From contig SVLK01000001.1 of the NCBI GenBank assembly GCA_015067975.1, positions 21,513-85,512 on the forward strand: a stretch of DNA of 64,000 nucleotides, in the 5' to 3' direction. The stretch is from Oscillospiraceae bacterium. GTDB lineage: Bacteria; Bacillota; Clostridia; Oscillospirales; Oscillospiraceae. Below the pieces are notes generated by a model, which was not told the DNA's origin, ran no database searches, and worked only from the letters and a program-made list of their open reading frames with translations. Of this stretch, positions 43,464-64,000 are shown in pieces (within the stretch, counting starts at the first letter, position 1; the number at the start of each line of letters is the position of its first letter). Made by a program: the position numbers and the translations under genes.

Positions 43464-43707
43464 GTGAGGTGGGATTTGCAGATTTTAGTGTTTTTTATCC
43501 AAATACAGATGAAACATCAGCGGAGCAGCGCATTTGCATCAAAATGCAGGGATTTTTTTGTTAAAAAAAGACAGGAAAAAACATAAATAACAGAGGGAAG
43601 TTTTGGATAAAAAGGAAGTATTTGGTGAAAACATACAAAAATAAAGATTAAGTATTGTCATTACAAACAATATTTGAAAGAAGAAGAGTGGAATCTTGCG
43701 ATTGTTA

Positions 43708-43742
43708 TTGCAAATTTCTGCAAATGGCAATATAATTGCCAT
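43708..43742 (+). promoter_or_regulatory. Promoter of the GDPD/ABC operon with a palindrome over the -10
   Basis: TTGCAA 43708-43713, 17 bp, TATAAT 43731-43736; ATGGCAAT-ATA-ATTGCCAT 43724-43742. Confidence 0.65.
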
Positions 43743-43778
43743 GTTATAGAGGTGAGTCAGATGCTTTGGGAGGGTGCG

Positions 43779-45146: not shown

Positions 45147-45184
45147 TTACCCAAAATGCGATTTTAGAAAAGGAGTGGGGTACA

Positions 45185-46081
45185 GTGAACGAACAGCAGA
45201 TGTTGCATCTGCAGGCAGTGAAGAAGAAGAAACGGCGCAAAAAGGTGCTGCCGTATCTGTTCATTCTTCCGACGGTCCTCATGTATTGCTCGTGGTGTTA
45301 TTTCCCTTTCATCAAGAGCATCGTTTTGTCCATGACGGTCAGTAATGCCCGAGGCGAAATTAAAAAGTGGGTTTGGTTTGATAACTTTATCCGCTTGTTC
45401 CAGGACGAAAAGACATGGAAGATTCTGGGAAATACCTTTAAATTTGCTCTGATGCTGGGCATTGGCACACTGATGGTGTCTATGATCCTCTCTCTGCTGT
45501 CGGTGGAGAAGGTGCGCTTCTGCCGTGTCTACCAGACCATGTATGCATTGCCCATGGCGGTGGCTTCCGTGGCAGCATCCGTGGCCTTCAAGCAGATCTA
45601 TAAGGCAGAGGGCCTGCTCAATGCCGTGATCGGCGGCGAGACCAACTGGCTGCTGCAGGAGAATACGGCCATCTGGGCCGTGGCCGTTGCCAGTATCTGG
45701 TGTGCGGTCGGTTCCAGCTTCCTGTTCTTGCTGGTGGGCTTCCGTAATGTGCCGCTGGATCTGCTGGAGAGCAGCAAGATGGACGGTGCCAACGGTCTGC
45801 AGCGGATCCTCAAGATCATGCTGCCCTGTGCCTCTCCCCAGATTTTCTTTGTTATTTTCCTGAATATCAACAGTTCCTTCAAATCGTTTGCCATGATCCG
45901 TCAGCTGACCGGCGGCGGACCCAACAACTCGACCATGGTGCTGACCTACGAGATCTACTCGCAGGCAATCCTGCACGGACGATTTGAAACAGCTTGTGCC
46001 GAGGCGATGATGCTCTGCCTGATCATTGTGATCTTCCAGCGCATTCAGTTCCGCCTGGAGAACAAGCTGGTGGTATATTAA
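45185..46081 (+). CDS. Carbohydrate ABC permease (UgpA-like)
   Basis: PYLFILP, WVWFDNF, NVPLDLLESSKMDGA EAA loop, LTGGGPNNST; GTG start 45185. Confidence 0.92.
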   Translation: MNEQQMLHLQAVKKKKRRKKVLPYLFILPTVLMYCSWCYFPFIKSIVLSMTVSNARGEIKKWVWFDNFIRLFQDEKTWKILGNTFKFALMLGIGTLMVSMILSLLSVEKVRFCRVYQTMYALPMAVASVAASVAFKQIYKAEGLLNAVIGGETNWLLQENTAIWAVAVASIWCAVGSSFLFLLVGFRNVPLDLLESSKMDGANGLQRILKIMLPCASPQIFFVIFLNINSSFKSFAMIRQLTGGGPNNSTMVLTYEIYSQAILHGRFETACAEAMMLCLIIVIFQRIQFRLENKLVVY

Positions 46082-46093
46082 GGGGGGGGAGCA

Positions 46094-46963
46094 ATGAGTA
46101 CGAGTAATTCTCTGCTGGCGTCTCCCAGCAAGCAGCACATGAAGCGCCGCGCCAAGGCGGTTCTCGCCTTCATTTTTAAGGTCGGTCTCGGTCTGGTGAT
46201 CCTGTTCCCCGTGTTCGTTATGGCATCCTGGAGCTTGCGCCCCGATGCTGAATTGGTGCAGTACGGTGCAACACTGTTTCCCAAGACGTGGACGCTGGAA
46301 TACTACAAGTGGGCTTTTGAAAATCTGAATTTGATTCGCTATATCATGAATAGCTTTATTCAGTTTTTCATCATCTTTGCGGGCCATGTGATCCTCTCCA
46401 GTCTGGCGGCCTATGCTTTCGTCTTCTTTAAGTTCAAGGGTGCTGCGCTGATCTTTACCATGATCCTGGTGGCACAGGTGATCCCCGGCGAGGTAACTGT
46501 CATCGCCAACTACATTACCATTCAGAAGCTGGGCCTGATCGACACCTTTGCCGGTTTGACGCTGCCCTCTCTGGTATCCGGTATGTCCATCTTCATGCTG
46601 CGCCAGTACTTCCTGACGATCCCCAAGGAACTGAAGGAGGCTTCGGAGCTGGACGGCTGCGGCGATGTTCGCTTCCTGCTGAAGATCCTGCTGCCGATCT
46701 CTGTTCCTACATACGCCTCTCTGGCCATTTATGACTTCATCGGCGTGTACAACTCCTGGTTCTGGCCTCTGCTGGTCACCAACTCCGATGATATGCGTAC
46801 GGTGCAGATCGGTCTGGCTCAGGCCATGGGCGGTCAGGTCTACGATGAGTACGGCCGTGTTCTGGCGGCAGCTACCGTGGCGGTTATTCCCACTATCGTG
46901 GTGTTCGTTATCGGTCAGGAATATCTGATCCGCGGCATGGTATCCGGCTCGGTCAAGGGCTGA
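46094..46963 (+). CDS. Carbohydrate ABC permease (UgpE-like)
   Basis: LAAYAF, FMLRQYFLTIPKELKEASELDG, WFWPLLVT, RTVQIGL, GSVKG. Confidence 0.93.
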   Translation: MSTSNSLLASPSKQHMKRRAKAVLAFIFKVGLGLVILFPVFVMASWSLRPDAELVQYGATLFPKTWTLEYYKWAFENLNLIRYIMNSFIQFFIIFAGHVILSSLAAYAFVFFKFKGAALIFTMILVAQVIPGEVTVIANYITIQKLGLIDTFAGLTLPSLVSGMSIFMLRQYFLTIPKELKEASELDGCGDVRFLLKILLPISVPTYASLAIYDFIGVYNSWFWPLLVTNSDDMRTVQIGLAQAMGGQVYDEYGRVLAAATVAVIPTIVVFVIGQEYLIRGMVSGSVKG

Positions 46964-47010: not shown

Positions 47011-48399
47011 ATGAAAAAGATGAAAAAAATGCTGGCTTTGATGCTGGCTATGCTGATGGCGCTGTCTCTGGTCGCCTGCGGCGACAAGGGCGGAAGCAGC
47101 AAGCCTGACAGCGGCAAGAGCGACGGCCCTGTGGAAGTGCTGGTCTGGTCTGCTTTCCAGGCTCCCATTGATGCAGAGCTGCAGGCTGCTGCCGATGCAT
47201 TCAACGCTTCTCAGGACAAGTATAAGGTCAAGATCCAGTTCCAGGGCCAGTTTACCGAAATTTTCACCAAGCTGACCACGACGCTGAACCAGAAGGACCT
47301 GCCCGAACTGACGGTGGTCAGCACGGAGCTGGCCGGCACCTATGCTATGGCCGAAGGATTGATCCGTCCCCTCAGCCACTACTGCAGTGCTGATGACGAA
47401 GTGTGGGCTAAGCTGAACGGTAACTTGAAGTATGTCTGGGGCAACGGCGATGGCGATCCCATCTACTATCCCTATGGTAACAGCCTGTACGGCAGCTTTG
47501 TCAACGCTGAGATCTTTGAGGCTGCCGGTATTGATCCCTACACCGCACTGACTTCTACCAAGGGCCTGTATGAGGCCTGTAAGAAGCTGGTGGACGGCGG
47601 CTACTGCAAGTACGGTATCGGCGTGGATAGCTGGGGCGGCTTTGTTTGGTATGCTCTGGCTGCTGCCGGTATTCAGGTCATGGATAACAACAATGGCCGT
47701 GACGGTATTCCCACCAAGATGCTGCTGGATACCCCCGAGGTCAGCGCTGCTCTGTACGACTATTTCTATTACTTCCGCAAGATGCAGCAGGAAGGCCTGA
47801 TGGTTCCCTACGGTTCTTCCTGGGGCGATGAGGTCCTGCCCGCATTTGCCAACGGCAGTTGCGCCGTTGCTACCGGGTCCATTGCCGCTTTTATCCGCGT
47901 GGAGACCGCTCTGGCCGCCGATCCCTTTGCGGTAGCTTATGTCCCCTGCTGGTCTGCCGTGGATCTGGGAAGCATCCCCGAAGGTTATTCCGCTTCCGGT
48001 ACCGGTCTGGGTATCGTGGAAAACGGTGACGAGGAAGCCATGGAAGGTGCATGGGAATTCATCAAGTTCACTAGCAATCCTGAGTTCCAGGAGTCCCTGT
48101 GCTTGGCCTCCGGCTATCTGCCCGTCACCAAGGAGGGTTATGAGTCTGCCGGTTATCAGGATTTCGTGACCAACCGTTTCCCCGCCGCTGCCAAGGCTTT
48201 CGAACTGCAGCAGAACGCCGCCATCGATGCCAAGCACATCAATCCTTTGAATCCTGTCAACAACGCTTGCCAGGATGCCACGCAGGAAGCTTGGTCCATG
48301 ATTATGACGGATCTTACCTGCGATATCAATGAGGTCATCGCTACTATGCAGAAGGACACCCAGATCGCTCTGGATCTGTGGCTGGATACCAACACCTAA
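47011..48399 (+). CDS. Family-1 extracellular solute-binding lipoprotein (UgpB-like)
   Basis: Lipobox LVAC, FNASQDKYKV..QFQG, NAEIFEAAGID, AWEFIKF, SGYLPV. Confidence 0.9.
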   Translation: MKKMKKMLALMLAMLMALSLVACGDKGGSSKPDSGKSDGPVEVLVWSAFQAPIDAELQAAADAFNASQDKYKVKIQFQGQFTEIFTKLTTTLNQKDLPELTVVSTELAGTYAMAEGLIRPLSHYCSADDEVWAKLNGNLKYVWGNGDGDPIYYPYGNSLYGSFVNAEIFEAAGIDPYTALTSTKGLYEACKKLVDGGYCKYGIGVDSWGGFVWYALAAAGIQVMDNNNGRDGIPTKMLLDTPEVSAALYDYFYYFRKMQQEGLMVPYGSSWGDEVLPAFANGSCAVATGSIAAFIRVETALAADPFAVAYVPCWSAVDLGSIPEGYSASGTGLGIVENGDEEAMEGAWEFIKFTSNPEFQESLCLASGYLPVTKEGYESAGYQDFVTNRFPAAAKAFELQQNAAIDAKHINPLNPVNNACQDATQEAWSMIMTDLTCDINEVIATMQKDTQIALDLWLDTNT

Positions 48400-48484: not shown

Positions 48485-49564
48485 ATGAAAAATGTTATCA
48501 TCATTGACGGGGCGACGCCGCAGTGGAAAGGAAATCTGCACCTGCACACCAGCCGTTCCCATGACAGTAAATATCACTATCTGGACGTATTCGATGAGTT
48601 GAAGAGCAAGGGCTACCACTTCTGCGCCGTCACGGACCACGAGGTTTACTGGGATAGCGAGGAGGGGCATACCGACACCTTTATCACGCTGCCCGGCGTG
48701 GAGACGATTTTGAAGACCAATGTGGACCGCGAGTGGAATGTGGATCTGCGGCGCAAGTTTATCCACATCAATGCGATCAAGGATGTGACCCGGGAGTGCG
48801 ATAAGCCCTTCAAACACGATGAACGGATGCTGCGCTGCTACGATCAGGGTCTGGACTGCATGAACGAATATATCCGCTATCTGGTAGAAGAGCGCGGACA
48901 GATCGTGCAGATGAATCACCCGGATTGGTCCCACATGGAGCCGGAAGTGCTGATGGCAACGCACAACATTTTTGCTTTTGAGGTGTTTAACTCCGGCGCG
49001 ATGCGCTATGCCGGCGGACAAACGGATGACTGGCGTTGGGATTTTTGTCTGGAACGTGGACGCAAGTTGTTGGCTACGGCGGCGGATGACTCCCACACTT
49101 ACGGACCTGATCACATTGAGTGCGGAGCAGGCTTTACCATGGTGCACACGGAGGACTTCTCCCGGTACGGTATCGTCAAGGCACTGAAGGAAGGCAAATT
49201 CTATGCCTCCACCGGTCCGAAAATCTATGACATGCGTGTGGAAGACGGTATGCTGAAGATGCAGTTTTCCGATGCGCGGTTCGTGCAGATCGTCGGATTC
49301 GGCTATTCCAGTCACTTCAGTGGCAACCGGGGCAAGAGCTTTGGTGCCCTGCCCGGCCAGGTGCTCAATTCCATCGAGTGGAAAATTGGCGAAAAACTGA
49401 ACTATTTCCGCGTGCGTGTGGTGGATCATCAGGGTGAGGTGGCGTGGTCGCAGCCGGTGTTTGTGGACGAGCTGATCGAGCATCCGCCCATCGAGGGTCG
49501 CGAGACCCGCTCTCCCAGCTGGTCGTTCCCCCGTTATCTGGACGAGATTAAGGAGCAAAATTGA
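48485..49564 (+). CDS. PHP-domain metallo-phosphoesterase (CehA/McbA-like)
   Basis: WKGNLHLHT, AVTDHE, PGVE, HINA, NHPDWS, FEVFN, ADDSH, ALKEGKFYASTGP. Confidence 0.85.
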   Translation: MKNVIIIDGATPQWKGNLHLHTSRSHDSKYHYLDVFDELKSKGYHFCAVTDHEVYWDSEEGHTDTFITLPGVETILKTNVDREWNVDLRRKFIHINAIKDVTRECDKPFKHDERMLRCYDQGLDCMNEYIRYLVEERGQIVQMNHPDWSHMEPEVLMATHNIFAFEVFNSGAMRYAGGQTDDWRWDFCLERGRKLLATAADDSHTYGPDHIECGAGFTMVHTEDFSRYGIVKALKEGKFYASTGPKIYDMRVEDGMLKMQFSDARFVQIVGFGYSSHFSGNRGKSFGALPGQVLNSIEWKIGEKLNYFRVRVVDHQGEVAWSQPVFVDELIEHPPIEGRETRSPSWSFPRYLDEIKEQN

Positions 49565-50271
49565 AAAAGAAGAACGTTTTTTTCAAAAAAATTCAAGAAA
49601 CGGTAAAAAAATGGCATCCGGACTATGTGCCGGCACAGGATCTGACAGAACCGGTGCCGGAGGCAGGCTGGAAGCGCTACGTTTTTTTGCTGCGTAACCA
49701 CTTTGTCAAGTTGTTGTGCTGCAGCTCTGTATACCTGCTCACCTGTATTCCTGTGGTGACGATTCCGGCTGCTACGGCTGGATTGTGCCATGTGATGATG
49801 GAACTGGAACGCAAGGGTAATGTGGTCAGCTGGTGGAATGCCTATTTTGTCGGCTTCCGTGACCGCTTTTTTGACCGGCTACTGCTGGGTCTGGGAAGTG
49901 TTTCAATTCCTTGCTGCATGGCGATTTTGCTGCTGAGCCTGCAGGTCAAAGAAACGGTAGCTTTGTGCATTGCTTTTGGCATATATCTGCTATGCAATAG
50001 TGTGTGGCAGTACTTTCTTGTGCTGCAGGATGTGATGGACCTGAAGTTGGGGCAGAACCTGCGTAATGCGGTGCTTTTGGCGCTGACCAACCTGAAGACA
50101 ACACTGGTTCTGGTGGTCTGTGCGCTGGTCTTTACGGGAATCATTCTGTATTTGTTCCCCTACTGGGTGATCCCGTTTGCCTTTTTTGGCTTTGCCGCAA
50201 AGCAGCTGCTCTTCTGCAGTCTGATCTGGCCCATTGCAAAACAAAGGCTTGTGGTGGAAGAGAACGTATAA
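49561..50271 (+). CDS. YesL/DUF624-like integral membrane protein
   Basis: CIPVVTIPAATAGL, F..F, NAVLLA; several TMs; TTG start overlapping the PHP stop. Confidence 0.72.
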   Translation: MKKKNVFFKKIQETVKKWHPDYVPAQDLTEPVPEAGWKRYVFLLRNHFVKLLCCSSVYLLTCIPVVTIPAATAGLCHVMMELERKGNVVSWWNAYFVGFRDRFFDRLLLGLGSVSIPCCMAILLLSLQVKETVALCIAFGIYLLCNSVWQYFLVLQDVMDLKLGQNLRNAVLLALTNLKTTLVLVVCALVFTGIILYLFPYWVIPFAFFGFAAKQLLFCSLIWPIAKQRLVVEENV

Positions 50272-50341: not shown

Positions 50342-51151
50342 TCAGTCGTCCTGCACTTCATCGGCGGGGTCGTAAATCATGGGAGCAATAATAAGTTCGG
50401 AGCCGAGACTGCGCAGGAATTCTTCATCCTCGGAAGAGAGACGTTCATCAACAACAATGGTGTCTACCTGCGAAATGGGATATACGTTGGAGAAAGCGCG
50501 GGTATGGAGTTTTTCGCTGCTGATGACTAGCACCAATTTCTCAGCGTGGCTATGGATCAAGGAACGGGAAAGGCCGAGATCATCATAGTCGGTGATATAG
50601 CCCTGCTGTGTATCCAGACCAGCACAACTGATAAAGGCGATATCTACATTGAAAAGGCTCAAATTGGAACTGGTGATTTTCCCATAGTAGGTGTATTCTT
50701 CGTGGCTAAGAGAACCGCCCAAAGAATATAGATTGACTTCCGTATCACTGAGTTCGTTGATGACCAACAGGGACGGGGTGACAACAGACAGATCGTGGAT
50801 GTCACGGACGTAGTGGGCCAGATGAGCCATGGTGCGGCCGCCGTCCAGCAGAATAGTGCTGCCGGAACGTACCAACTTGGCAGCGGCTTGTGCGGCGGCC
50901 AGATTCCCAGCGTGGAACTGTCGGCGGAATTTGGGTGTTGCACCGTGAATGGGCGAAGTGTTATCATCCTGCGGGATCAGAACAGCGCCGCCATGTACGC
51001 GCTTGGCTAAGCCGTTTTCCTGTAAAGTTTCCAGATCGCGTCTGGCGGTTTCGTGGGAAACATTGCATAACTGCATGACTTCGGAAACCTTAATGGTGCT
51101 TTTTTCAAGCAATACGCGAGCGATCAGATCATAACGTTCCTGTGCTAACAA
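50342..51151 (-). CDS. DeoR/GlpR-family transcriptional regulator
   Basis: ER..LI, VSHETARRDL..L...G...RVHGGA HTH, ILLDGG.T, DIAFISCAG; TTG start 51151 after AAGGAGGG. Confidence 0.93.
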   Translation of the reverse strand: MLAQERYDLIARVLLEKSTIKVSEVMQLCNVSHETARRDLETLQENGLAKRVHGGAVLIPQDDNTSPIHGATPKFRRQFHAGNLAAAQAAAKLVRSGSTILLDGGRTMAHLAHYVRDIHDLSVVTPSLLVINELSDTEVNLYSLGGSLSHEEYTYYGKITSSNLSLFNVDIAFISCAGLDTQQGYITDYDDLGLSRSLIHSHAEKLVLVISSEKLHTRAFSNVYPISQVDTIVVDERLSSEDEEFLRSLGSELIIAPMIYDPADEVQDD

Positions 51152-51583
51152 AATGCTCCCTCCTTGTGCGCAACGGGTGCGATGCAATTCTTACTTTAAC
51201 AATATAACACAAAAAAGAAAAAGTAAAGAAGAAAATGGGGAATTTTAACAAAAAAGCAAACCATGAGAAGAAAGCCGTGAGCGTTTTTGGGTATATAGCG
51301 GTGCAAAAACAAGCGAAAAATAAGAGAGAAGGTATTTGCTGCGGAAATACGTGCGAGTCTTGGCGCGAAAATGGCGGAAAAGCAAAAAAGTGCAATAATT
51401 GAGTTGACCTTTTTTGCGTTTTCGTGTATCATGTGGTTGTGAAATAATGGAATTATCAACATGGGTACGTATCCGCATTACCTGCGGCAATGACCTGTGA
51501 GACTTTGTTCGGAAAATATTGTCACCGGAAGTGAAAGTAGCCAGTGCGGCCGATTGCTGTGCACGTAGAAGGTGGAGAGAACA

Positions 51584-53053
51584 ATGAGCGGAACAGTTAA
51601 CTACATTTTGTCTTATGACGCGGGAACCAGCGGCATCAAGGCGGTTCTTGTGGGCACAGACGGCAGCATTTGTGCTTCGGCAACAGTGGGATATTCGCTG
51701 CTGCGGCCGCAAGACGGGTGGGCAGAGCAGATCCCTGCGGAATACTGGGACGCGGCGTGCCGCTCGGCACATGCGGTATTGGCACAGGGAAATGTGGCGG
51801 CCGAGCAGGTAATCGGCGTGATTTTCGCTACGCAGTGGAAGGGTATGATTCCGCTGGATGCGGAGGGAAACGTACTGCACAATAGTATTATCTGGATGGA
51901 TACCCGCGGCACGGCGGAAGCTGTGGAACTGGCTGAAAAAACGGGAATGGCCTGTGTTGCTAGAGATTATTGGCCGAGGATCCTCTGGTTTAAGAAGAAC
52001 TGTCCCGAGCAGTACGCGAAGACAGTTTGCTTCCTGGAGGCGAACAGTTATCTGAAATATCGGGCGACCGGCAGCAGGACCATTGACCAGAGCAATCATT
52101 TTACCCGCTCGCCGCTGCCTAAGGTGCAGGCCTTGTTTGATGCCATGCTGGCAGGCGGCGAGATCGCACCGGAATTGTTTCCACCCGTGGTGCAGGCTAC
52201 CGATGAGGTGGGGAGGCTGACGGCTGCAGCGGCGCAGGAGCTGGGACTGAAGGAAGGCACCCCAGTGTTTGGCGGGTTGTGTGATATTCCGGCGGTGACG
52301 ATCGGTGCCGGGGCCTGCGCGGTGGGTGCAGCCCATGTATATCTGGGAACATCCGGCTGGATCGGTGTGACACGTGCGGTCGGAGACGGTGCACCGCGGA
52401 TTCCGGTGGTGTTGTCGCAGGATCGCTGGGCCCATGTGGCCGGTATGCAATCAGCGTGCATGAGCTATGACTGGTGTCTGCGCACCTTTTACAAAGAAGA
52501 AATGGCACGGCTGGGCGATGGGATCTACGGGATGGTGGAAGAAGAGCTTTCGCAGATCCCGGCTGGATCCCTTGGCTTGACGGCACTGCCTTCGCTGAAT
52601 GGAGAAGGTGGGCCCTTTGCGCCTGCCATGCGGGCCGGATTTGTAGGCCTAACGGCTGCGCATGACAGACGCCATATGGTTAACGCGGTGCTGGAAGGTA
52701 TTTGCTGCATTTTACGTCTGCGGAAAGAAGCCATCGAAAAGAGTGTGGGTAAGCCGATTACCTGTATTCGTGTGGTGGGAGGCGGTGCCGGAAGTCCGCA
52801 CTGGATGCAGATGCTGGCCGATGTGCTGCGTGTGGAAGTGATCGTGCCGGAAAATGCCCGCTATGCCGGCGCATTGGGTGCGGCCTACTGTGCCATGATC
52901 GGCTTAGGCTTGTGCGAAAATCTGGAAGAGTGCGCGGAGCGTGCACGGATCAAAGCAAGATATATACCGCGTGACGATGCTGCGGATGTGTATGACAGGC
53001 AGTGGCCTCGCTTCTGGAAAGCGGCGCAGCTGTTGGGAGATGTTGACGCGTAA
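51584..53053 (+). CDS. FGGY-family carbohydrate kinase (xylulokinase-like, divergent)
   Basis: YDAGTSGIKA, WAEQ.P, IIWMDTR, YLGTSGW, AVLEG, VGGGA.S..WMQMLADV. Confidence 0.9.
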   Translation: MSGTVNYILSYDAGTSGIKAVLVGTDGSICASATVGYSLLRPQDGWAEQIPAEYWDAACRSAHAVLAQGNVAAEQVIGVIFATQWKGMIPLDAEGNVLHNSIIWMDTRGTAEAVELAEKTGMACVARDYWPRILWFKKNCPEQYAKTVCFLEANSYLKYRATGSRTIDQSNHFTRSPLPKVQALFDAMLAGGEIAPELFPPVVQATDEVGRLTAAAAQELGLKEGTPVFGGLCDIPAVTIGAGACAVGAAHVYLGTSGWIGVTRAVGDGAPRIPVVLSQDRWAHVAGMQSACMSYDWCLRTFYKEEMARLGDGIYGMVEEELSQIPAGSLGLTALPSLNGEGGPFAPAMRAGFVGLTAAHDRRHMVNAVLEGICCILRLRKEAIEKSVGKPITCIRVVGGGAGSPHWMQMLADVLRVEVIVPENARYAGALGAAYCAMIGLGLCENLEECAERARIKARYIPRDDAADVYDRQWPRFWKAAQLLGDVDA

Positions 53054-53108
53054 ATAACCGGATCCGTATGGCCGGATGGCCGGGACGGGGAAATAATGGA
53101 GGAGAACC

Positions 53109-54584
53109 ATGAGAGTATTTGTGTGTGAGTTTTCGCAGGAGACGAATTCGTTTTGTCCTGTCATTTCTACTCGTGAAGATTTCGGCGAGTGGGATGGCGG
53201 AGGCACCAAGAAAGAAGTACATGGCTTTATCGATGTGATGCTGGAGAACGGCTTTGAAGTGATCCGTGGCCCCATGTACCGTGCACAGGCATCCGGTCCT
53301 GTGAAGCAGGAAGTGGTGGATCAGTTCCTTGAAGAATCCATCCAGCAGCTCAGAGAGATCGGCAAGGCGGACGCTGTTTGCGTAGAGCTGCACGGTTCTA
53401 CCCAGTCTACCGAGAGCGACAATGTGTGCGGTGATATCGTATCTGCGCTGCGTGAAGCGGCGGGCGGTGTGCCTGTGGCAGCCAGCTGCGATCTGCATGC
53501 CAACATCACAAAGAAGCTTTACGAGAACGCTGATTTCATCAGCTCCTATCAGACCTATCCCCACCGTGACGCTTACGAGACCGGTCGCCGCTCTGCAGAA
53601 CTGTGCGTGCGCAAGCTGAAGGGCGAAGCCGTCTTTTCCGCATGTGTCAAGGTGCCGATGATCGTTCCTGCCAGCGGTTACACCACCGAGGGCGGTGCTT
53701 TTGGCGAGGTGGTCAAAAAGGCCCGTGCACTGGTGGCAGAGGGCAAGATCTTTGATTACAGTCTTTGCGTTGTGCAGCCTTGGCTGGATGTGTACGAGTG
53801 CGACTCTGCCGTGCTGGTATATGCAGCAGATCAGGAAGTGGCCGTGCAGTGCGCACAGGAACTGGGACAGGGTATGGCCGCATGCTGCGATGACATGCAT
53901 CCGCAGGTATCCACGGTGGATGAGATCATCGAGCGTGCCCGTGCAAAGAAGGAAGACAAGCCGGTGATCGTGTCCGACTTCTCCGACTCCCCCAATGCCG
54001 GTGCTGCCGGTGACAATGTGGACATTCTGGCAGGCCTGTTGGAGCGCGGCAGCGATCTGAAGGGAGCCGTGATCGTCAATGATGTACTGGCTACCGATGC
54101 TGCCTTTGCCTGCGGCGTGGGCGGTACGGCGAAATTCCGCATCGGCGGTACGCTGGCACCCCATTATTCCAAGCCGGTAGAGGTGGAGGGAACGGTTCGC
54201 TCCCTGCACGACGGCAAGTATGTGCTGGGCGGCCCCATGATGCGCGGTGTGGAAGTGGATGTCGGCCGCGCTGCAGTGATCACTGTGGGCAAGGTGGATG
54301 TGCTCTTGTGCCATGCCATGTGCATCACCGGCGATATCCAGTTGTACCGTCATTTCGGCATTGAGCCTGCCTTCTATCAGGTGGTAGTAGTCAAGGCCAA
54401 TACATCTTTTAAGGCCGTATATTCTGTCGTTTCGGAAGATATCGTATCCTGTGATACGGGTTGTGCCTCTACGGCGGATCTGGCAAGCCTGCCTTGGAAG
54501 CATCTGCCGAAGGAGGGAATGTATCCCTTTATTTCCCTTACAAATTATTGCGCAAAAGACCATACGCTGCAGCGCAGCCTGTAA
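53109..54584 (+). CDS. M81-family (MlrC-like) metallo-amidohydrolase, paralog 2
   Basis: QETNSF, LHGS, ASCDLHANI, YQTYPHRD, QPWLDV, SDSPNAGAAGD, GIEP. Confidence 0.9.
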   Translation: MRVFVCEFSQETNSFCPVISTREDFGEWDGGGTKKEVHGFIDVMLENGFEVIRGPMYRAQASGPVKQEVVDQFLEESIQQLREIGKADAVCVELHGSTQSTESDNVCGDIVSALREAAGGVPVAASCDLHANITKKLYENADFISSYQTYPHRDAYETGRRSAELCVRKLKGEAVFSACVKVPMIVPASGYTTEGGAFGEVVKKARALVAEGKIFDYSLCVVQPWLDVYECDSAVLVYAADQEVAVQCAQELGQGMAACCDDMHPQVSTVDEIIERARAKKEDKPVIVSDFSDSPNAGAAGDNVDILAGLLERGSDLKGAVIVNDVLATDAAFACGVGGTAKFRIGGTLAPHYSKPVEVEGTVRSLHDGKYVLGGPMMRGVEVDVGRAAVITVGKVDVLLCHAMCITGDIQLYRHFGIEPAFYQVVVVKANTSFKAVYSVVSEDIVSCDTGCASTADLASLPWKHLPKEGMYPFISLTNYCAKDHTLQRSL

Positions 54585-54800
54585 TATACAAAAAAGCATC
54601 GATACAGCAATAGACTGAGGGCGACCGTAATACATGCCGCGCAGCAGCATAGCACCTATGAAAGATGCGTGACATACCTGCCGCGGCGGCAAAATGAAAT
54701 TGAGCAGCCCCAGTCTGCGCTGAATGTGCAGTCTGGGGCTGTTATTGTTGCAACACAACTGCAGACCGGCCGGAATGGAGCCGGAGAAAAGGAGAAAGAA

Positions 54801-55850
54801 ATGAACTATTTACAGTGGCTGACCCAAAATACCCCTACCCGGTTCTGGCATGATTCGGCGATTCCTTCCGAAATCGATGCCGCCATCGAGAATGGCGCCA
54901 TGGGCGTGACCACCAACCCCGTACTGACCTATAAGACGCTGCAGGCCGTGCCGGAGTTCTGGCAGCCTCAGGTGGATAAGATCGACAAGGACCTGACTCC
55001 TGCAGAGCACGCTGAGGCACTGCTGCAGATGGTGGCTACCTATGCCGCCGATAAGTTCCGCCCCGTGTTTGAAAAGACCAACGGCCAGCACGGTTACGCA
55101 CTGGGCCAGCTGGATCCCTCCATCTGCATGGACAGTGAGAAGATGTTGGCACAGGGTCTGCGCTATGCTTCCTGGGCAGACAATATCTCCGTGAAGACTC
55201 CATCCATCATGTCGGCACTGCCGCTGGTGGAAGAGCTGGCTTCCCGCGGTATCGCCGTGTGCACCACGCTGAACTTCTCTGTGTCTCAGGCGATGGCGGT
55301 GTGCGAGGCCTACATGCGCGGCCGCGCCAAGGCGGAGGCAGCCGGTATCCAGCCCAAGCCCATTTTCGTGGTGCAGCAGGGCGGCCGTCTGGACGAGTAT
55401 TTGCTGGAGTGCGCTACCGACAACCGCATTGATATCGATCCCGAGATCATCCGCAATGCAGGCAACGCGGTGTGCAAGAAGGTGTACAGCCTGCTGAAGG
55501 AGCGGAACATTCCTGCGGTGGTGATGCCTGCGGGCCTTCGCGGCGTACATCACCTGACCTCTATGGCCGGTGCCGATATGACGTTCTCTCTGCAGGCCCG
55601 TATCCAGCAGATGACCATCGAGGCAGATCCGGAGCGCGTGTGCCACATTGATGACGAAATCCCCGCCGAGGTGATCCGGAAGCTGTACAAGCTGCCGGAG
55701 TTCGTGCGTGCCTATGAAGAGGGCGCACTGAAGCCGGAGGAGTTCATCACCTTCGGTGTGACGCAGAAGACCATGTCCCAGTTCCTGTGGACCGGCTGGG
55801 TCCCGCTGGAGACGTACCAGAAGGCACCTGCCGGTGCCCGCTGGTTCTAA
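54801..55850 (+). CDS. Transaldolase-family protein with non-canonical active site
   Basis: FWHDS, GVTTNP, Schiff-base VKTP, TLNFSVSQ, GRLD; ATG 54801 with AAGGAG RBS. Confidence 0.85.
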   Translation: MNYLQWLTQNTPTRFWHDSAIPSEIDAAIENGAMGVTTNPVLTYKTLQAVPEFWQPQVDKIDKDLTPAEHAEALLQMVATYAADKFRPVFEKTNGQHGYALGQLDPSICMDSEKMLAQGLRYASWADNISVKTPSIMSALPLVEELASRGIAVCTTLNFSVSQAMAVCEAYMRGRAKAEAAGIQPKPIFVVQQGGRLDEYLLECATDNRIDIDPEIIRNAGNAVCKKVYSLLKERNIPAVVMPAGLRGVHHLTSMAGADMTFSLQARIQQMTIEADPERVCHIDDEIPAEVIRKLYKLPEFVRAYEEGALKPEEFITFGVTQKTMSQFLWTGWVPLETYQKAPAGARWF

Positions 55851-55869
55851 GAATGGGGAGGAAATAGAC

Positions 55870-56607
55870 ATGTTGAAGGGTAAACAGGCTTTGATCACCG
55901 GCGGTGCCGGTGAAATGGCATCCACTATCGCGGCAACGTTGGCAAAGCAAGGTGCAGCCATTATTTTGGTGGATCTGAACGCAGAGGCACTGGAGACGGT
56001 GAAAGCGGATCTGGTAGAGCGCTTTGGCGTACCGGTGCATACCTATGTACACAATTTGTGCGATTTTGACGGTCTGGCAGAGATGGTAGACACCATGGAG
56101 CGTGAATGCGGTGCCATTGATATTCTGGTGAATGTGGCCGGTATTACTAATACCATCACTTACCGTGATATTACGCCGGCCGATTGGGACAAAATGATGA
56201 GCATTAATCTGAAGGCACCTTTCTTCCTGACTCGGGAACTGTTCTTCCGTATGGAAGAGCGCGGTTTCGGTCGTATCGTAACACTGGGTTCCATTTCCGG
56301 TGAGCGCGGCGCCAAGTATGCAGGCCCCCACTACTCCATTTCCAAAGCGGGCCTGATCTGCTTTACCAAGGTGCTGGCCAAGCTGGCCGGTGACAGTGGA
56401 GTGACGGCCAATACGGTGTCTCCTGGCATCATTGCTTCCCGTATGACCGATAGTCTGGGCTCTCAGGTGTATTCTTACGATGTGCCCATGAACCGCATGG
56501 GTACACCGCAGGAAGTAGCGGATGCAGTACTGTATCTGGTATCTCCGCTGGCCAACTATGTAACGGGACAGAATCTGAGTGTCAACGGCGGCCAGTCCAT
56601 GCGCTAA
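55870..56607 (+). CDS. Short-chain dehydrogenase/reductase (classical SDR)
   Basis: TGGAGEMA, DILVNVAG, S...YSISK, NTVSPG, PMNRMGTPQEVA, VTGQ...VNGG. Confidence 0.92.
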   Translation: MLKGKQALITGGAGEMASTIAATLAKQGAAIILVDLNAEALETVKADLVERFGVPVHTYVHNLCDFDGLAEMVDTMERECGAIDILVNVAGITNTITYRDITPADWDKMMSINLKAPFFLTRELFFRMEERGFGRIVTLGSISGERGAKYAGPHYSISKAGLICFTKVLAKLAGDSGVTANTVSPGIIASRMTDSLGSQVYSYDVPMNRMGTPQEVADAVLYLVSPLANYVTGQNLSVNGGQSMR

Positions 56608-56619
56608 GACGAAGAAATA

Positions 56620-57650
56620 ATGAAAGGCGTTGTTAAATACGAATTGGGGATGCACGGTGTGGAGCTTCGTGAACTGCCGGAGCCTGCCCCGAAAGAAGGC
56701 GAATGCAAAGTCAAGGTGCTGGCGGCGGGCATCTGCGGCAGCGATATCCATGCGCTGAAGGATGAGCGTTCCGTCACGATGCCTGTGGTGCTGGGTCACG
56801 AGTATGTGGGACAAATCGTAGAAACCTGTGGTGATATTGGCGATCTGCAGGTAGGCGACTGGGTCACCACGCTGCCGGCCTGCTATAGCTGCGGTACATG
56901 TGAACTTTGTCGCGCCGGTGTGGTGACACTATGCCGGCAGCGCAAGTCTATCGGCTCCCACAGAGACGGTGCGATGGCAGATTATGTGGTGGTGCCGGCG
57001 GTGTATACCTATCGCATTCCCAAAGCAGCCGACACGACCGAAAAAAAGATTGCTTATGCGTTGGCGGAGCCGTTGGCCTGCGTGGTGCGAGGCGTCTATG
57101 AGCGCATTGACGTCAAGCCGGGCGATACGGTAGTGGTCAGTGGCCCTGGTGTGATGGGCCAGATGGCAGCACAGGTGTTCAAGTCCCGTGGCGCCTATGT
57201 AATCTTGTCCGGTCTGCTGGAAGATCGTAAGAAACTGGAACTGGCCAAAGAATTGGACGCGGCCGATGCAACGGTGTGCAGTACGGAAGAACTGCGCCAA
57301 GCCGTGTATAGCCGCAATCCCCTTGGGGCAGATATTACTTGCGATTGCACCGGAGTGGTGCATTCCCTGGAAACCTGCGTGGACGTGATCCGCCCTATGG
57401 GAACGCACTTGCAGCTGGGGATGTTCGGCGGCAAAGTGCCCGTCCGGATGGACAGCTTTTTTGACAAGGAAGTGACCTATGTACCCAGCAACTCCAGCAG
57501 CGTAACGGCGTGGAAGACCACCATGGGCTGCTGGAGGGCGGTATTTCGCTGGAACCGTTCGTTTCCATGCAGTTGCCGCTGCAGGAGTGGAGAACGGCAT
57601 TTGACGCCGTGATTGACAAAAGGGTGTACAAAGCAGTGCTGTTGCCGTAA
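56620..57650 (+). pseudogene. Zn-dependent polyol/sugar dehydrogenase (MDR) with an apparent 1-nt frameshift near 57525-57527
   Basis: GICGSD, GHE, C-C-C-C structural Zn site, EPLAC, GPGVMG; the normal MDR C-terminus LLEGGISLEPFVS...AFDAVIDKRVYKAVLLP* lies in the -1 frame and ends at TAA 57648-57650. Confidence 0.8.
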
Positions 57651-57685: not shown

Positions 57686-58054
57686 ATGGAAATTATTGAG
57701 AGAAGGTCTGTGCCTGAGCAGATGCTGCCCGGCCGTTTTATGCAGAAGTTGGTGGGGAAGAAGGAGGATGGTTATCTCTCCGATAGCCGCATCCTGAACA
57801 TCGGCTACTGCCGCTACTGCGCGGAGGCAGGTCCCATGGAGCCTCACATGCACGCCGAGGAGACGGTGCAGGTCCTTGCCAGTGACCGCGCCTGGGTGCG
57901 TTTCGGCCCTGACAAGGATGACCTGCCCCACAAGGTGATGCTGCAACCCAACATGACGCTGCACATTCCTGCCGGTGAATGGCATGTGTTTGAGTACGCG
58001 GAGGGTGGTTCGCTGGAGATTCTCTTCATCTACGGCGCACAGGTACAGTTGTAA
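57686..58054 (+). CDS. Cupin-domain protein
   Basis: PHMHAEE and HIPAGEWHVF metal-binding cupin motifs. Confidence 0.85.
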   Translation: MEIIERRSVPEQMLPGRFMQKLVGKKEDGYLSDSRILNIGYCRYCAEAGPMEPHMHAEETVQVLASDRAWVRFGPDKDDLPHKVMLQPNMTLHIPAGEWHVFEYAEGGSLEILFIYGAQVQL

Positions 58055-58092
58055 GGGTCAAAGTGCTTCCCGGGAAGCAAAAGGAGAATGGA

Positions 58093-59412
58093 ATGAAAGA
58101 AAAAATCATCGTCCTGTCCATGGATGCCATGGTAGGCGAAGACATTGAATACTTAAAAACAAAACCCAACTTTGCACGACTTTTTGAAAAACGTGTGCAG
58201 GTGGGGAAGATGTGTACGGTCTATCCCAGCATCACTTATCCCGCCCATGTCAGCATGATGACCGGCTGCCGTCCGGGAAAGCACGGTATCATCACCAACG
58301 GAAAGTTCAAGACCACACTGGGCAAAGTGGACTGGCATCTGTACAACCATGAGCTGCTGGTAGAGGACGTTTTTGCGGCGGCCAAGCGCGCCGGTTGCAC
58401 CACAGCTTCCGTGTACTGGCCTGTGACGGGCTGCAATCCCAATGTGGACTATCTGATCAATGAGTTTTTCTTCTACGACAACGAGCCGATCGAGGAGACG
58501 TTTGCCGCCATGGGTACCAATGAGGCAACCATGGAGATCGTGCGGGAGAACATGGGTCGCTGGCCCACGGAGCCCGGCGGCAGCGGAAACAGACTGTATC
58601 TGCACAACTCCTTCGACTCCTTCATTGTCGGCTGTATGTGCAGCCTGATCCGCAAACATCAGCCCGATCTGCTGCTGGCCCACAACTGTTGGTTCGACGC
58701 CCTGCGCCACCGCAACGGTGTGTTCGGTGAACTGGTGCACGAGGGGCTGGATCAGATGGATCTGTGGCTGGGTGAACTGATCGAAGCACTGGAAGATGCC
58801 GGGATCTATGAGCAGACCAACTTTTTGCTGGTCAGTGACCATGGTCAGCGGGATTTTGTCCGCCGCATCAAGGTCAACACGCTGCTGCGCCGCGGCGGCT
58901 TTGTGGATGCCAACCAGGACGAGGTGCTGGATTGGCGAGCCTACGGACAGTCCAACGGTATGTCGGCCACCATTTTCCTGAAGGATCCCGATGACAAGGA
59001 ACTGTGGCAGCAAGTATATGACTACCTGCAGGGGCTGGCTGCCGACGGTGTCTGGGGGTTCAACAAGGTATATACCGAGGCTGAAGCACGGGAGCGCTAC
59101 GGCATGTACGGCGATTTTGCCTTTATGCTGGAGTCTGACGGCTACACCTCTTTTGCCGAGTCGTGGAGAGAGCCGGTGATCCATCCGGTGGATCTGACGG
59201 ACTACCGTTTGGGTAAGGCGACCCACGGCTACGAGCCGGAGAAGGGTGCCCAGCCTGTGTTTGTGGCCCGCGGACCTGCGTTCCGCGACGGCGCCTATAT
59301 CGAAAACGCACGGGTGATCGATGAAGCGCCCACTGTTGCCAGAATTCTGGGACAGACCATGCCGCAGGCAGAAGGCCGTGTGCTGGAAGAGCTGCTGGCA
59401 GAAGGCCGATAA
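58093..59412 (+). CDS. Alkaline-phosphatase superfamily nucleotide pyrophosphatase/phosphodiesterase (NPP type), cytoplasmic
   Basis: VLSMDA, YPSITYPAH (Thr nucleophile), DALRH, VSDHG, ATHGY; no signal peptide; ATG 58093. Confidence 0.92.
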   Translation: MKEKIIVLSMDAMVGEDIEYLKTKPNFARLFEKRVQVGKMCTVYPSITYPAHVSMMTGCRPGKHGIITNGKFKTTLGKVDWHLYNHELLVEDVFAAAKRAGCTTASVYWPVTGCNPNVDYLINEFFFYDNEPIEETFAAMGTNEATMEIVRENMGRWPTEPGGSGNRLYLHNSFDSFIVGCMCSLIRKHQPDLLLAHNCWFDALRHRNGVFGELVHEGLDQMDLWLGELIEALEDAGIYEQTNFLLVSDHGQRDFVRRIKVNTLLRRGGFVDANQDEVLDWRAYGQSNGMSATIFLKDPDDKELWQQVYDYLQGLAADGVWGFNKVYTEAEARERYGMYGDFAFMLESDGYTSFAESWREPVIHPVDLTDYRLGKATHGYEPEKGAQPVFVARGPAFRDGAYIENARVIDEAPTVARILGQTMPQAEGRVLEELLAEGR

Positions 59413-59418
59413 AAAGTC

Positions 59419-59459
59419 AAAAAAAGAAAGGGTTCGCACTGCGAACCCTTTCTTTTTTT
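59419..59459. terminator. Bidirectional terminator
   Basis: AAAAAAGAAAGGGTTCGC-ACT-GCGAACCCTTTCTTTTTT. Confidence 0.85.
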
Positions 59460-59467
59460 GTATCGAT

Positions 59468-61111: not shown

Positions 61112-64000
61112 ATGGAAAACGATGTTCAGAAGAAACCCGAAACATCGAAGCGCAAGAAACTCTTGCCGCTGCTTCTGATCGTGGCCCTGCTGGTAGTCGG
61201 AGGTATTGTTGCCGGCATCACCCTTCTGGCAGGCCCCTCCCGAAAAACAGAAGTAGAAGTCGGTGATTTTGAAACGCTGAAAGAAGTGGTGGAATCCACG
61301 GAGAGCGAAAGAATCATCACCCTGACAAGTGACATTCAGATGACGGAGTCTATCACGATTCCCGCAAACGTGAAGATCACCATCGTGGACGACGGTACGC
61401 CCCGTACCCTGACCCGTCAGGATATGGATACCTGGATGTTCTGGGTGTCGGAAGATTCTGCACTGGAACTGAAGGGTACAACGGCCAAGGGCCTTGTGCT
61501 TGACGGCAACAGTGGCAATGTCAAGTGCGGTCCCGACGGCGCTATGCTGATTGGTGAATATGCCGAGTTCATGTTGGAAAACGTAATGTTGAAGGACAAC
61601 CGTACTAATAGCGGTATGGGCGGCCTGATGCGTGTTGTGACCTGCGACGTGACGGCAACCAACAGCTCCTTTACCGGCGGTACCTCCAAGAGCGGCGGTG
61701 CCGTGTATGCCATTGAGTCCAATTTGGCTTTTACTAACTGCGATATTTCTGAGAACAGATCTACGCAGGGCCATGGCGGCGCTCTGTATGTGGACAATGC
61801 CAGCACCTTGTCCCTGATGAGCTGCACCATGAACAACAACTACATCAACACCGGTTCCGGCTACGGCGGTGCATTTATCATCACCAACTTCAGCCAGGCC
61901 GAGATCGTGGACACTACCTTCGATGGCAACTATGTTGACCACGATGGCAGCGGTTGCGGCGGCGCTATGTATGTTGCATGGGGCAGCGTGGCTAACCTGT
62001 CGGGTAAGACTGTGGTCTCCAACAGCTATGCCAAGGCCGGTGGCGATACCAATGCTCTGGGTGGTGCTGTCTATATCAATGAAGGCAGCTCTATCAATAT
62101 TGGCGAGGGCGTTCTGTTCAGCGGTAACTCCGGTACCCACGGCGGCGCTATCTACGCCATTGATACCGCTGTGATTAACGTGGACGGTGCCGTTTTTACG
62201 GACAACCATACCACCAAGGGTAACGGCGGCGCCATCTACTGCTGGCGCGGTCCTACGCTGAATGCCAAGAACACTACCTTCCTGAAGAACTACACCAAGT
62301 CCGAAGCCAATGCTTACGGCGGTGCTGTGGCTATTGCCACCGGCGGTGCCAGCGGTACCATCGAGAGCTGCGTGTTCGAAGGCAACTACACGGACAACGT
62401 TGGTTTCTGCAACGGTGGTGCTCTGTTGGTCGGCGCGACCAGCAAGGTGACCATGAGCGGCAACAATGTGTTTAAGGACAACTGGGGCAAGTCCTCCGGT
62501 GGCAAGAACACCTGTGGCGGTGCAATCTACATTTCCGATGCTACGCTTGAGATGAGCGAAGGTACGGTCTTTACCGGCAACTCCGGTACCCACGGCGGTG
62601 CTGTGTATATGAACGCCAACGGCAAGTTCATCGTCGACGGTGCCAAGTTTAAAAACAACAAGTCTTATCTGGGCCACGGTGGTGCCGTTTGCGCCTGGAA
62701 CGGCGGCAGCATCTCTGCAACCAACTGCTCATTCACCAACAATACCATCGATAGTGCTACCGGTGGTTACGGTGGCGCTGTGGCAGTGTATAACGCAGAT
62801 GATCAGAAGAACACCAGTGTTGGTACCTTCACCGGCTGTACCTTTGACAGCAACTACATTGCCCGCTCTGGTAACATCCACACCAACGGTGGTGCCATGT
62901 ACATCGGTATGGGTGCTGATGTGACCGTCAACGGCGGTAGCGTGTTCTCCAACAACTATGCCAAGGTTAATAATGAAGAAGCCAACTGCTACGGTGGTGC
63001 GATCTATCTAAACACCGACAGTGTTCTGAACCTGGGCGCATCCACGTTCACCAACAACTATGCTGAGCTGGGTGGCGCAGTGATGGCCTACGGTGCTGCC
63101 AAGGTGAATGTGAACGGTGCAAGCTTCGTTGGCAACTATACTACTGTCGATCACGGCGGCGCTGTCTACACCATCAAGACACCCACTGCGATTTCCGGCA
63201 GTACATTTACTAAGAACTATGCTGAAAAGCACGGCGGCGCTGTGATGATCGTCGGTGTGGAAGAGGGCGAGAATGTCAGCAATGGCATCATCACTAACTG
63301 CACCTTTAACGGCAACTACAGCAAGACCCAGCGCGGCGGTGCTGTGGCTAGCTTCTATGCCAAGAACCTGGCAATCACCGGCAGTGCCTTTAATGAGAAC
63401 TACACTAACTACGCCCACGGCGGTGCGGTGTTTACGCAGAACATGCCTGTGGAGATTAAGTCCAGCACCTTCGCCAAGAATAGAGTGGAGAGCGAAGCTG
63501 GCGGTTACGGCGGTGCCGTTGCCATTGTCAATACGGAAGTGGCTGTTGCCAAGTCTTCCGGCGTGATTACCGATTGCGTGTTTGACGGTAACTATGCAAT
63601 CCGCACTGCAGGCGACAATGCTGCTTGCGGCGGTGCCGTGTATGCCGGTCTGGGTACTAAGCTGACCATCAACGGCACGAGCGAGTTCAAGAACAACTAT
63701 GTCAAGGCATTCAACCTTGCCAAGGCTTATAACGGTGGTGCCGTGTACGGTAATGACTACACGGAAATCACTGTGGCTGATACTGTCACCTTCACCAACA
63801 ACACCAGCCGTCTGGGCGGTGCTATTTGCACCATCGGCGCAACGAAGCTGGATGTTACCGGTGCCAAGTTCGATGCTAACAGCACCGACTACGGTCACGG
63901 CGGCGCTATCTATGCCGAAAATACCGTCGTTGGTCTGAAAGGTAGCACTTTCAGCAATAACAAGGTGGAATCCACGGCCACTGGTTACGGCGGTGCTGTG
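61112..64000 (+). CDS. Large membrane-anchored Pmp-like (GGA[IVLM]/FxxN repeat) right-handed beta-helix protein, partial (runs off window end; not in ORF track)
   Basis: GGAGGAG RBS; MENDVQKKPETSKRKK + TM LLPLLLIVALLVVGGIVAGITLL; frame read through to 64000 (963 codons) with about 25 F.xN...GGA(I/V/L/M) repeats. Confidence 0.9.
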   Translation, partial: MENDVQKKPETSKRKKLLPLLLIVALLVVGGIVAGITLLAGPSRKTEVEVGDFETLKEVVESTESERIITLTSDIQMTESITIPANVKITIVDDGTPRTLTRQDMDTWMFWVSEDSALELKGTTAKGLVLDGNSGNVKCGPDGAMLIGEYAEFMLENVMLKDNRTNSGMGGLMRVVTCDVTATNSSFTGGTSKSGGAVYAIESNLAFTNCDISENRSTQGHGGALYVDNASTLSLMSCTMNNNYINTGSGYGGAFIITNFSQAEIVDTTFDGNYVDHDGSGCGGAMYVAWGSVANLSGKTVVSNSYAKAGGDTNALGGAVYINEGSSINIGEGVLFSGNSGTHGGAIYAIDTAVINVDGAVFTDNHTTKGNGGAIYCWRGPTLNAKNTTFLKNYTKSEANAYGGAVAIATGGASGTIESCVFEGNYTDNVGFCNGGALLVGATSKVTMSGNNVFKDNWGKSSGGKNTCGGAIYISDATLEMSEGTVFTGNSGTHGGAVYMNANGKFIVDGAKFKNNKSYLGHGGAVCAWNGGSISATNCSFTNNTIDSATGGYGGAVAVYNADDQKNTSVGTFTGCTFDSNYIARSGNIHTNGGAMYIGMGADVTVNGGSVFSNNYAKVNNEEANCYGGAIYLNTDSVLNLGASTFTNNYAELGGAVMAYGAAKVNVNGASFVGNYTTVDHGGAVYTIKTPTAISGSTFTKNYAEKHGGAVMIVGVEEGENVSNGIITNCTFNGNYSKTQRGGAVASFYAKNLAITGSAFNENYTNYAHGGAVFTQNMPVEIKSSTFAKNRVESEAGGYGGAVAIVNTEVAVAKSSGVITDCVFDGNYAIRTAGDNAACGGAVYAGLGTKLTINGTSEFKNNYVKAFNLAKAYNGGAVYGNDYTEITVADTVTFTNNTSRLGGAICTIGATKLDVTGAKFDANSTDYGHGGAIYAENTVVGLKGSTFSNNKVESTATGYGGAV

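Follow-up and report, generated by a model that had tools for sequence, protein, structure and literature searches.

In the literature searched, no characterized enzyme of peptidase family M81 was found besides MlrC of Sphingomonas sp. ACM-3962 (PDB 7YLQ, MEROPS M81), which cuts the Adda-Glu peptide bond (PMC9982164, PMC12474180). Its zinc ligands are E39, D167, H169 and H191, and H133 and D332 are also essential (PMC9982164); the same residue set is given under another numbering in PMC12474180. Here we describe an M81 (MlrC-family) zinc hydrolase gene at positions 53109 to 54584, forward strand, of a window from an Oscillospiraceae bacterium (assembly GCA_015067975.1, contig SVLK01000001.1, positions 21,513 to 85,512), "the window" being the whole stretch of 64,000 nucleotides that was analyzed. 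Its family and fold, an intact metal site, the structure of its operon and its conserved pairing with a kinase gene are what the sequence analysis shows, and this conserved context predicts a non-peptide role for a member of a known family. We give about an even chance to the reading in which the protein would act in the cytoplasm as an amidohydrolase, together with the kinase, on a sugar or polyol conjugate that is taken up from outside and probably bears a phosphate.

Systems that join comparable activities are known from other protein families. In the NagK/NagA and DeoR-type AgaR regulons, a kinase and a metal-dependent de-N-acylase are co-encoded under a sugar-phosphate-sensing repressor, DeoR proteins being a sugar-phosphate-sensing regulator family. 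NagK/NagA served as our working analogy for the kinase-M81 pair, the likeness being functional only: NagA is a TIM-barrel amidohydrolase and NagK a ROK kinase, neither of them homologous to M81 or to the FGGY kinase found here, and no amidohydrolase TIM barrel was detected in the M81 protein, for which Pfam returned M81 domains only and structural comparison gave no such match. Import of a phosphodiester by an ATP-binding cassette (ABC) transporter followed by cytoplasmic cleavage is known from the Ugp system (UgpBAEC plus UgpQ) and from the agrocinopine acc operon (with the DeoR-family regulator AccR and the phosphodiesterase AccF). The acc operon resembles the present locus in its DeoR-type repressor, and Ugp resembles it in that the binding protein of the locus is nearest to UgpB. 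Unlike the present locus, neither has an M81 gene or an FGGY kinase gene, and in place of their cytoplasmic GDPD the phosphodiesterases here are of NPP, PHP and metallo-beta-lactamase-fold (MBL) types.

The M81 gene is an uninterrupted frame of 491 amino acids that starts with ATG and is preceded by the ribosome binding site GGAGGAG at 53098-53104, 5 nt 5' of the start codon. Pfam identified DUF1485 (PF07364; residues 2-277, 9.3e-68, 229 bits) followed by MlrC_C (PF07171; residues 288-465, 4.2e-44, 151 bits), the same two domains as in MlrC. In a pairwise alignment, MlrC residues E39, D167, H169, H191, H133 and D332 corresponded to E11, D128, H130, H152, H95 and D293, and MlrC D341 to D302; E11, H95, D128, H130, H152, D293, D302, R414 and K429 were all conserved. 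Across 103 relatives the zinc-site and second-shell residues were invariant or nearly so, and the metal-site residues were kept in the target's own clade and in the distant outgroup alike. An AlphaFold2 model built on the alignment of relatives had a mean predicted local distance difference test score of 95.8, and Foldseek superimposed it on 3IUU (template modeling (TM) score 0.91, E 8.4e-46) and on 7YLQ (TM score 0.84), with no other PDB entry close. These were also the sole solved relatives by sequence (3IUU, E 4e-45; 7YLQ, phmmer E 3.3e-36). The top match in both structure and PDB sequence, 3IUU, is a putative metallopeptidase of Mesorhizobium sp. BNC1 that differs from the target in being only ~26% identical and is a structural-genomics entry to which no substrate has been assigned. 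We therefore place the protein in M81 because of its domains, its aligned metal residues and the superposition of its model. No signal peptide-like N-terminus was found; residue 11 is already a metal ligand, so a cytoplasmic location follows, as for MlrC. On this sequence evidence we propose that the protein is a zinc-dependent cytoplasmic hydrolase with a complete predicted metal site, presumed active.

Despite these shared features, the protein is not an ortholog of MlrC, because its score against the MlrC model NF041767 (128.9 bits) was far under the cut-off of 999 and none of mlrA, mlrB and mlrD lay nearby, the neighbors being genes for FGGY, transaldolase-fold, dehydrogenase, NPP and DeoR proteins. 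Identity to MlrC was ~26%, nine clade-specific invariant residues differed, the loop at residues 26-38 was shortened relative to MlrC, where it carries the proposed general base, and the context of kinase and DeoR gene is unlike the peptide pathway in which MlrC acts.

To place the gene among its relatives, 51 related loci were fetched by M81 sequence motifs and compared by tblastn with the window proteins. Locus genes were also called by conservation and clustering, and codon-trained calls were used, antisense open reading frames (ORFs) being long here. Lineage counts given below are non-redundant, collapsed at 80% identity, and comprise 25 clade lineages and 19 outgroup loci. A tree of 53 M81 proteins placed the target, all of its own paralogs and 28 others in a clade on a long stem, with a Shimodaira-Hasegawa-like approximate likelihood ratio test (SH-aLRT) support of 100. 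The 28 others belong to Bacillota, Spirochaetota, Chloroflexota and Bacteroidota and are from gut, rumen and digesters. This clade kept its support of 100 (41 rows) after 25 M81s from an unbiased sample of the order were added; 7 of these 25 fell inside the clade and 18 formed a sister group. Clade-specific invariant residues were Y147, Y150, D154, R161, P187, D216, H367, D409 and S433, and the resulting signature, YYDRPDHDS, was present in 105 of ~250 aligned relatives, the target included, and differed in the outgroup. The nearest ortholog, at 84% identity, came from an Oscillospiraceae metagenome-assembled genome (locus L030). A first metagenome scan with the single protein as query gave no match. 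Within the family at large, 4757 clusters (50% identity) matched the target at E <= 1e-3 and 850 at E <= 1e-30.

The most frequent direct neighbor of the clade M81s was a gene for an FGGY kinase, which was immediately adjacent in 12 of 25 clade lineages compared with 0 of 19 outgroup loci, and no more than a few genes away in 14 of 25, the outgroup loci having none. The lineages with an adjacent kinase spanned all four phyla; the intergenic gaps were small and often negative (-4, -7 or -8 nt), so that start and stop codons overlap, and the pairwise identities of M81 and FGGY co-varied (r 0.57-0.67). All M81-adjacent FGGYs carried [ST]QWKG at the site occupied by NQRET in glycerol kinases, and genuine GlpK-like genes of these loci retained NQRET, NQGET or HQGET; the motif therefore sets the adjacent kinases apart as a distinct, xylulokinase-like FGGY subfamily. 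A role for the adjacent kinase as a glycerol kinase acting on glycerophosphodiester products was considered and rejected, QWKG standing in place of NQRET. DeoR homologs were found in 12 of 25 clade lineages. We propose from this conserved context that the M81 subfamily and its dedicated QWKG FGGY kinase would form a two-enzyme unit under a DeoR-type repressor. The original prediction had asked whether M81s of sugar operons form a group of their own and whether their close relatives keep a carbohydrate neighborhood, and both expectations held as far as sequence data reach: the clade is fully supported with the dedicated FGGY as its commonest direct neighbor in four phyla, and the sister group also lies among sugar-type genes. 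Sister-group neighbors included AraC, a GHL6-like glycosidase, Gfo/Idh/MocA oxidoreductases and xylose-isomerase-like TIM barrels, together with an M24 peptidase and an ASRT-like protein, and around M81 genes in this order carbohydrate-type neighborhoods were commoner than peptide-type ones. At four loci of the order sample (L083, L085, L090 and L098), members of the sister subfamily had a conserved context of their own, with AraC, M24 (creatinase/prolidase-like), an ASRT-family small protein and the GHL6-like glycosidase.

In the window, the kinase and M81 genes are the first two of seven co-oriented genes (operon B: FGGY, M81, TAL_FSA-fold, short-chain dehydrogenase (SDR), Zn-dependent alcohol dehydrogenase (ADH), 122-aa ORF and NPP), with intergenic gaps of -17 to 84 nt, of which 55 nt separate FGGY from M81 and 84 nt separate M81 from the transaldolase-fold gene. 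The features of operon B, of the divergent repressor gene and of the upstream operon A are as follows.

43554 to 43566, reverse strand: 13-mer TTTTAACAAAAAA, candidate operator of operon A, 108 nt before the GDPD gene
43674 to 45146, forward strand: GDPD-family phosphodiesterase, first gene of operon A, labeled earlier as a surface lipoprotein (Pfam GDPD, 3e-21)
45065 to 46963, forward strand: two CUT1-type ABC permeases (BPD_transp_1 in both)
47011 to 48399, forward strand: UgpB-like solute-binding protein (SBP_bac_8 and SBP_bac_1)
48485 to 49564, forward strand: PHP-type metal hydrolase with a CehA/McbA-like domain (NF038032, 66.7 bits, under cut-off)
49561 to 50271, forward strand: DUF624 (YesL-like) membrane protein (Pfam DUF624, 4.3e-7)
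50342 to 51187, reverse strand: DeoR-family repressor, divergent from the kinase-M81 operon (HTH_DeoR and DeoRC)
51243 to 51255, forward strand: second copy of the 13-mer, 56 nt before deoR
51404 to 51432, forward strand: promoter-like site of operon B (TTGACC-17-TATCAT, 10/12 matches, a consensus match only)
51572 to 53053, forward strand: FGGY kinase of the "QWKG" subtype (FGGY_N and FGGY_C; motif TQWKGMIPLD)
53109 to 54584, forward strand: the M81 gene
54669 to 55850, forward strand: transaldolase/FSA-fold enzyme (TAL_FSA, 7.5e-27)
55834 to 56607, forward strand: SDR (adh_short_C2, 2.9e-52)
56620 to 57612, forward strand: Zn-dependent polyol-type dehydrogenase (ADH_N and ADH_zinc_N)
57686 to 58054, forward strand: 122-aa ORF, no family assigned (no Pfam or NCBIfam match)
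58063 to 59412, forward strand: NPP-type phosphodiesterase/pyrophosphatase, last gene of operon B (Pfam Phosphodiest, 2.6e-43)
59418 to 59460, no strand assigned: bidirectional hairpin terminator ending operon B (20-pair stem, then a T run)

The placement of the M81 gene between a sugar kinase and a transaldolase, and its co-orientation in an operon that lacks a peptide transporter, thus hold as originally described: FGGY precedes the gene, a TAL_FSA-fold gene follows it, and Pfam searches of the window proteins found no peptide transporter in operon B or at the locus, the CUT1 ABC system being the only importer near the target. The second of these statements is qualified by paralogs linked to Opp/Dpp- and Liv-type systems elsewhere in the genome. 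The transaldolase did not stand up as a partner of M81, because the transaldolase-fold, SDR and Zn-dehydrogenase genes were, among the related loci, common to the 84% ortholog L030 only; all three were dropped from the conserved core, the conserved partners being the kinase, DeoR, importers and phosphoesterases. Several of the assignments in the list are to a family and not to a named enzyme: the target-side kinase had XylB as its top NCBIfam match (268 bits, cut-off 380), the Zn-dehydrogenase had threonine 3-dehydrogenase and IolM, both far under cut-off, and the binding protein had UgpB, under cut-off, with UgpB structures 9lff, 4aq4 and 6x84 as its nearest solved relatives. The label "cupin" once given to the 122-aa ORF was not confirmed by the Pfam and NCBIfam scans.

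Two lines of evidence connect operons A and B. Within one mismatch, the 13-mer matched the window twice, where 0.04 matches were expected, and of its three exact copies in the 1.87 Mb genome two lie at the two promoter regions of the locus and the third at C35:17985; it is thus a candidate shared operator for both operons. In the spirochaete loci L022 and L024, binding protein, PHP, FGGY, M81 and MBL genes are arranged in a single operon, and the two operons of the window therefore appear to belong together. Ugp-like CUT1 importer homologs were found near M81 in 8 of 25 clade lineages, Opp-type importers in 6, and MFS or AspT-type permeases elsewhere. Phosphoesterases near the clade M81s were of the PHP (6 lineages), NPP (6) and MBL (4) types, with NPP homologs adjoining M81 in L036, L046, L047 and L064 and a GDPD homolog following M81 in L028. 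Of these loci, L047 belongs to Cuneatibacter sp. NSJ-177, a carrier of the module that is in culture. Other recurrent neighbors were LarA-like 2-hydroxyacid racemases, accompanied by glycerate kinase or malic enzyme; a PhnW-like class-V aminotransferase (6 lineages; 287 bits against a cut-off of 361; top PDB match 1M32); and a trio of DAO/BFD (GlpA), Pyr_redox_2 (GlpB) and DUF1667 genes typical of clostridial glycerol-3-phosphate dehydrogenases.

These neighborhoods allow a route to be proposed, in which the hydrolyzed bond, the substrate class, the order of the steps and the shared regulation of both operons are what we infer from gene content. The Ugp-like importer together with the PHP, NPP and MBL enzymes points to a phosphate-bearing conjugate, an option absent from the original prediction, and the bond cut by M81 would probably be an amide (or ester) link to a sugar or polyol, as opposed to peptide digestion. 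A small conjugate, consisting of a sugar, polyol or amino-polyol with an amide-linked acyl or aminoacyl group and probably a phosphate ester as well, would enter via the neighboring UgpB-like ABC system; the PHP and NPP enzymes would cut its phosphoester links and M81 its amide, and the FGGY kinase would phosphorylate the freed hydroxylated moiety. Alternatively, following the NagK/NagA logic, the kinase might phosphorylate the conjugate itself ahead of hydrolysis. The phosphorylated moiety could then pass through the SDR, the Zn-dehydrogenase and the transaldolase-fold enzyme, and in other members the two halves might be disposed of by LarA-like enzymes with glycerate kinase or malic enzyme on the acid side and by the PhnW-like aminotransferase on the amine side. 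The sugar-amide hydrolase originally suggested survives in part: the sequence context favors a carbohydrate-type amide conjugate, but the N-acetyl amino sugars, aldonamides and Amadori compounds named as its substrates gained no specific support.

More tentatively, and at somewhat less than an even chance, M81 and the QWKG FGGY kinase may constitute an undescribed and widespread catabolic module of gut and rumen anaerobes for amide-linked amino-polyol, sugar or sugar-phosphate conjugates, candidate substrates of which may be head-group or cell-surface fragments with N-acyl or aminoacyl groups. M81 is a large family with one established function, in microcystin breakdown, and the kinase pairing under DeoR gives a concrete, testable handle on the role of much of the family in communities of gut, rumen and digesters. 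If the proposal is right, it would mean a first non-peptide activity for M81 and a new substrate class for FGGY kinases, and the routine annotation of such genes as "microcystin degradation protein MlrC" would be corrected; should the conjugate prove to be a polyol or amino-polyol one that bears phosphate and derives from lipids or cell walls, the route would represent recycling of necromass by anaerobes that is absent from current pathway maps.

Several observations weigh against a sugar- or polyol-directed role. MlrC, the one characterized M81 enzyme, is a peptidase. Its proposed general base, E70, corresponds to E36 of the target, a column in which only 13 of 34 clade members have Glu because the loop varies in length. 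The loci were retrieved via M81 motifs, and the target's own clade is therefore over-sampled; the 7 clade members of the unbiased order sample had no FGGY neighbor. The nearest ortholog (L030) lacks genes for a Ugp-like importer, PHP and NPP within 10 kb, so that the phosphate-bearing part of the model depends on remoter relatives. Further points come from the genome itself (1.87 Mb, 84% complete), which encodes five M81 paralogs of 41-45% mutual identity (genome G000, contigs C38 and C31, L017, L018 and L019, plus window 23491-25056); of 401 genomes sampled evenly across the order, only 24 carried any M81 and none more than three. Two of the target's own paralogs, one just upstream of the window at the end of an SBP_bac_5/OppBCDF operon with a divergent DeoR gene and the other at window 23491-25056, follow Opp-type operons and have no kinase. 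A third comes after a Liv-type ABC system, which imports amino acids or amides, and downstream of this paralog lie genes for an FGGY kinase, a LarA-like racemase and malic enzyme; a fourth further paralog stands alone.

One alternative makes the protein an MlrC-like hydrolase of unusual short peptides (D-, beta- or gamma-linked) that are taken up by peptide transporters encoded elsewhere in the genome, its position in a sugar operon being irrelevant to its chemistry. MlrC cleaves Adda-Glu with catalytic residues identical to those of the target, paralogs end Opp/Dpp-type and Liv-type operons as just described, an M20 peptidase lies near M81 in L035, and the M24 peptidase lies beside sister-group M81s. 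Against these stand the adjacency of the kinase, shared by four phyla, with stop codons that overlap start codons; regulators of the DeoR or LysR families, which are not peptide-type; and the lack of a peptide importer in the target operon. As to the Opp link, family-5 binding proteins also take non-peptide ligands such as agrocinopine, and most Opp-linked M81s also have a kinase or DeoR gene, the kinase being kept in 4 of 7 such lineages. On balance we consider a peptide hydrolase, whether its peptides are ordinary or unusual, unlikely.

The bond might instead be an ester. The enzyme would then strip D-alanyl or other aminoacyl esters from teichoic-acid polyol-phosphates, or from aminoacyl-phosphatidylglycerol head groups imported by the Ugp-like system, and the polyol would afterwards be dephosphorylated, re-phosphorylated and oxidized. 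Teichoic acids carry D-alanyl esters and are degraded by GlpQ-type GDPDs, and the presence at the locus of a GDPD, a UgpB-like binding protein and PHP and NPP phosphoesterases fits such a route, as do the SDR and Zn polyol dehydrogenases of the operon, the glycerol-3-phosphate-dehydrogenase-like trio that adjoins M81 in L025, L036 and L043, and the AspT-type permease (aspartate:alanine exchanger family) that follows M81 in L026 and L041. The adjacent kinase, however, lacks the glycerol-binding NQRET, which makes glycerol unlikely as its substrate and weakens the ester route. Aminoacyl esters are labile and perhaps need no dedicated enzyme, no D-alanine-specific gene was found nearby, the PhnW-like aminotransferase and LarA-like neighbors of other members are left unexplained, and L030 has neither the importer nor the phosphoesterases. 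We regard ester hydrolysis as quite improbable, and the amide-linked conjugate as the preferred substrate class. A catalytically idle or non-hydrolytic M81 protein, for example a scaffold or regulator of the kinase, would account for the tight coupling of the two genes and is extremely improbable, since more than 100 relatives keep every metal ligand and second-shell residue without exception, which implies selection on catalysis.

Fused forms of M81 were also sought. A word-index search found none of the longer forms; an exhaustive search returned P0253 (971 aa), which joins M81 to a domain of the serine beta-lactamase/transpeptidase type, and an 844-aa form in which Pfam recognized no additional domain, both uninformative for the target's clade. 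MlrB, which acts before MlrC in microcystin breakdown, belongs to the serine beta-lactamase/transpeptidase-type domain family.

A phosphonate route was considered and gained no support: the PhnW-like gene of this genome is on a different contig, next to a DeoR gene, neither PhnX nor PhnA was seen as a partner, and the NPP enzyme is not a close PhnA, having no NCBIfam match at 1e-5. That PhnW-like class-V aminotransferase gene (L073, G000:C7:36000-42000) stands alone by its divergent DeoR gene and is 58% identical to those flanking M81 elsewhere.

The NPP gene of operon B has two paralogs in Ugp-like loci of the same genome that lack M81. One of these loci (L071, G000:C7:68000-82500), where the NPP paralog is 64% identical, comprises in order Ugp-like permease(s), an MBL-fold hydrolase, a GlpK-like FGGY (HQGET), an ornithine cyclodeaminase/mu-crystallin enzyme, NPP, DeoR and an octopine/nopaline-dehydrogenase-family gene, and from this gene content it looks like a locus for catabolism of a phosphodiester head group bearing an opine-like secondary amine. 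Rumen protozoa contain a phospholipid with an N-(1-carboxyethyl)ethanolamine head group. The other (L072, G000:C43:5000-14500) is a third DeoR-controlled locus with a Ugp-like ABC system, NPP and DUF624, and has neither M81 nor kinase. Elsewhere in the genome (L074, G000:C24:2000-16000), a QWKG FGGY gene adjoins genes for a cytoplasmic GDSL esterase, a DctM-like permease, an MFS permease, LysR and a DAO/Rieske flavoprotein; a QWKG kinase with a putative GDSL O-deacylase instead of M81 fits the theme of deacylase plus kinase. Just downstream of operon B, a 2550-aa ORF with Chlam_PMP repeats and a beta-helix region occupies window positions 61112-64000 and runs on to C38:90276.

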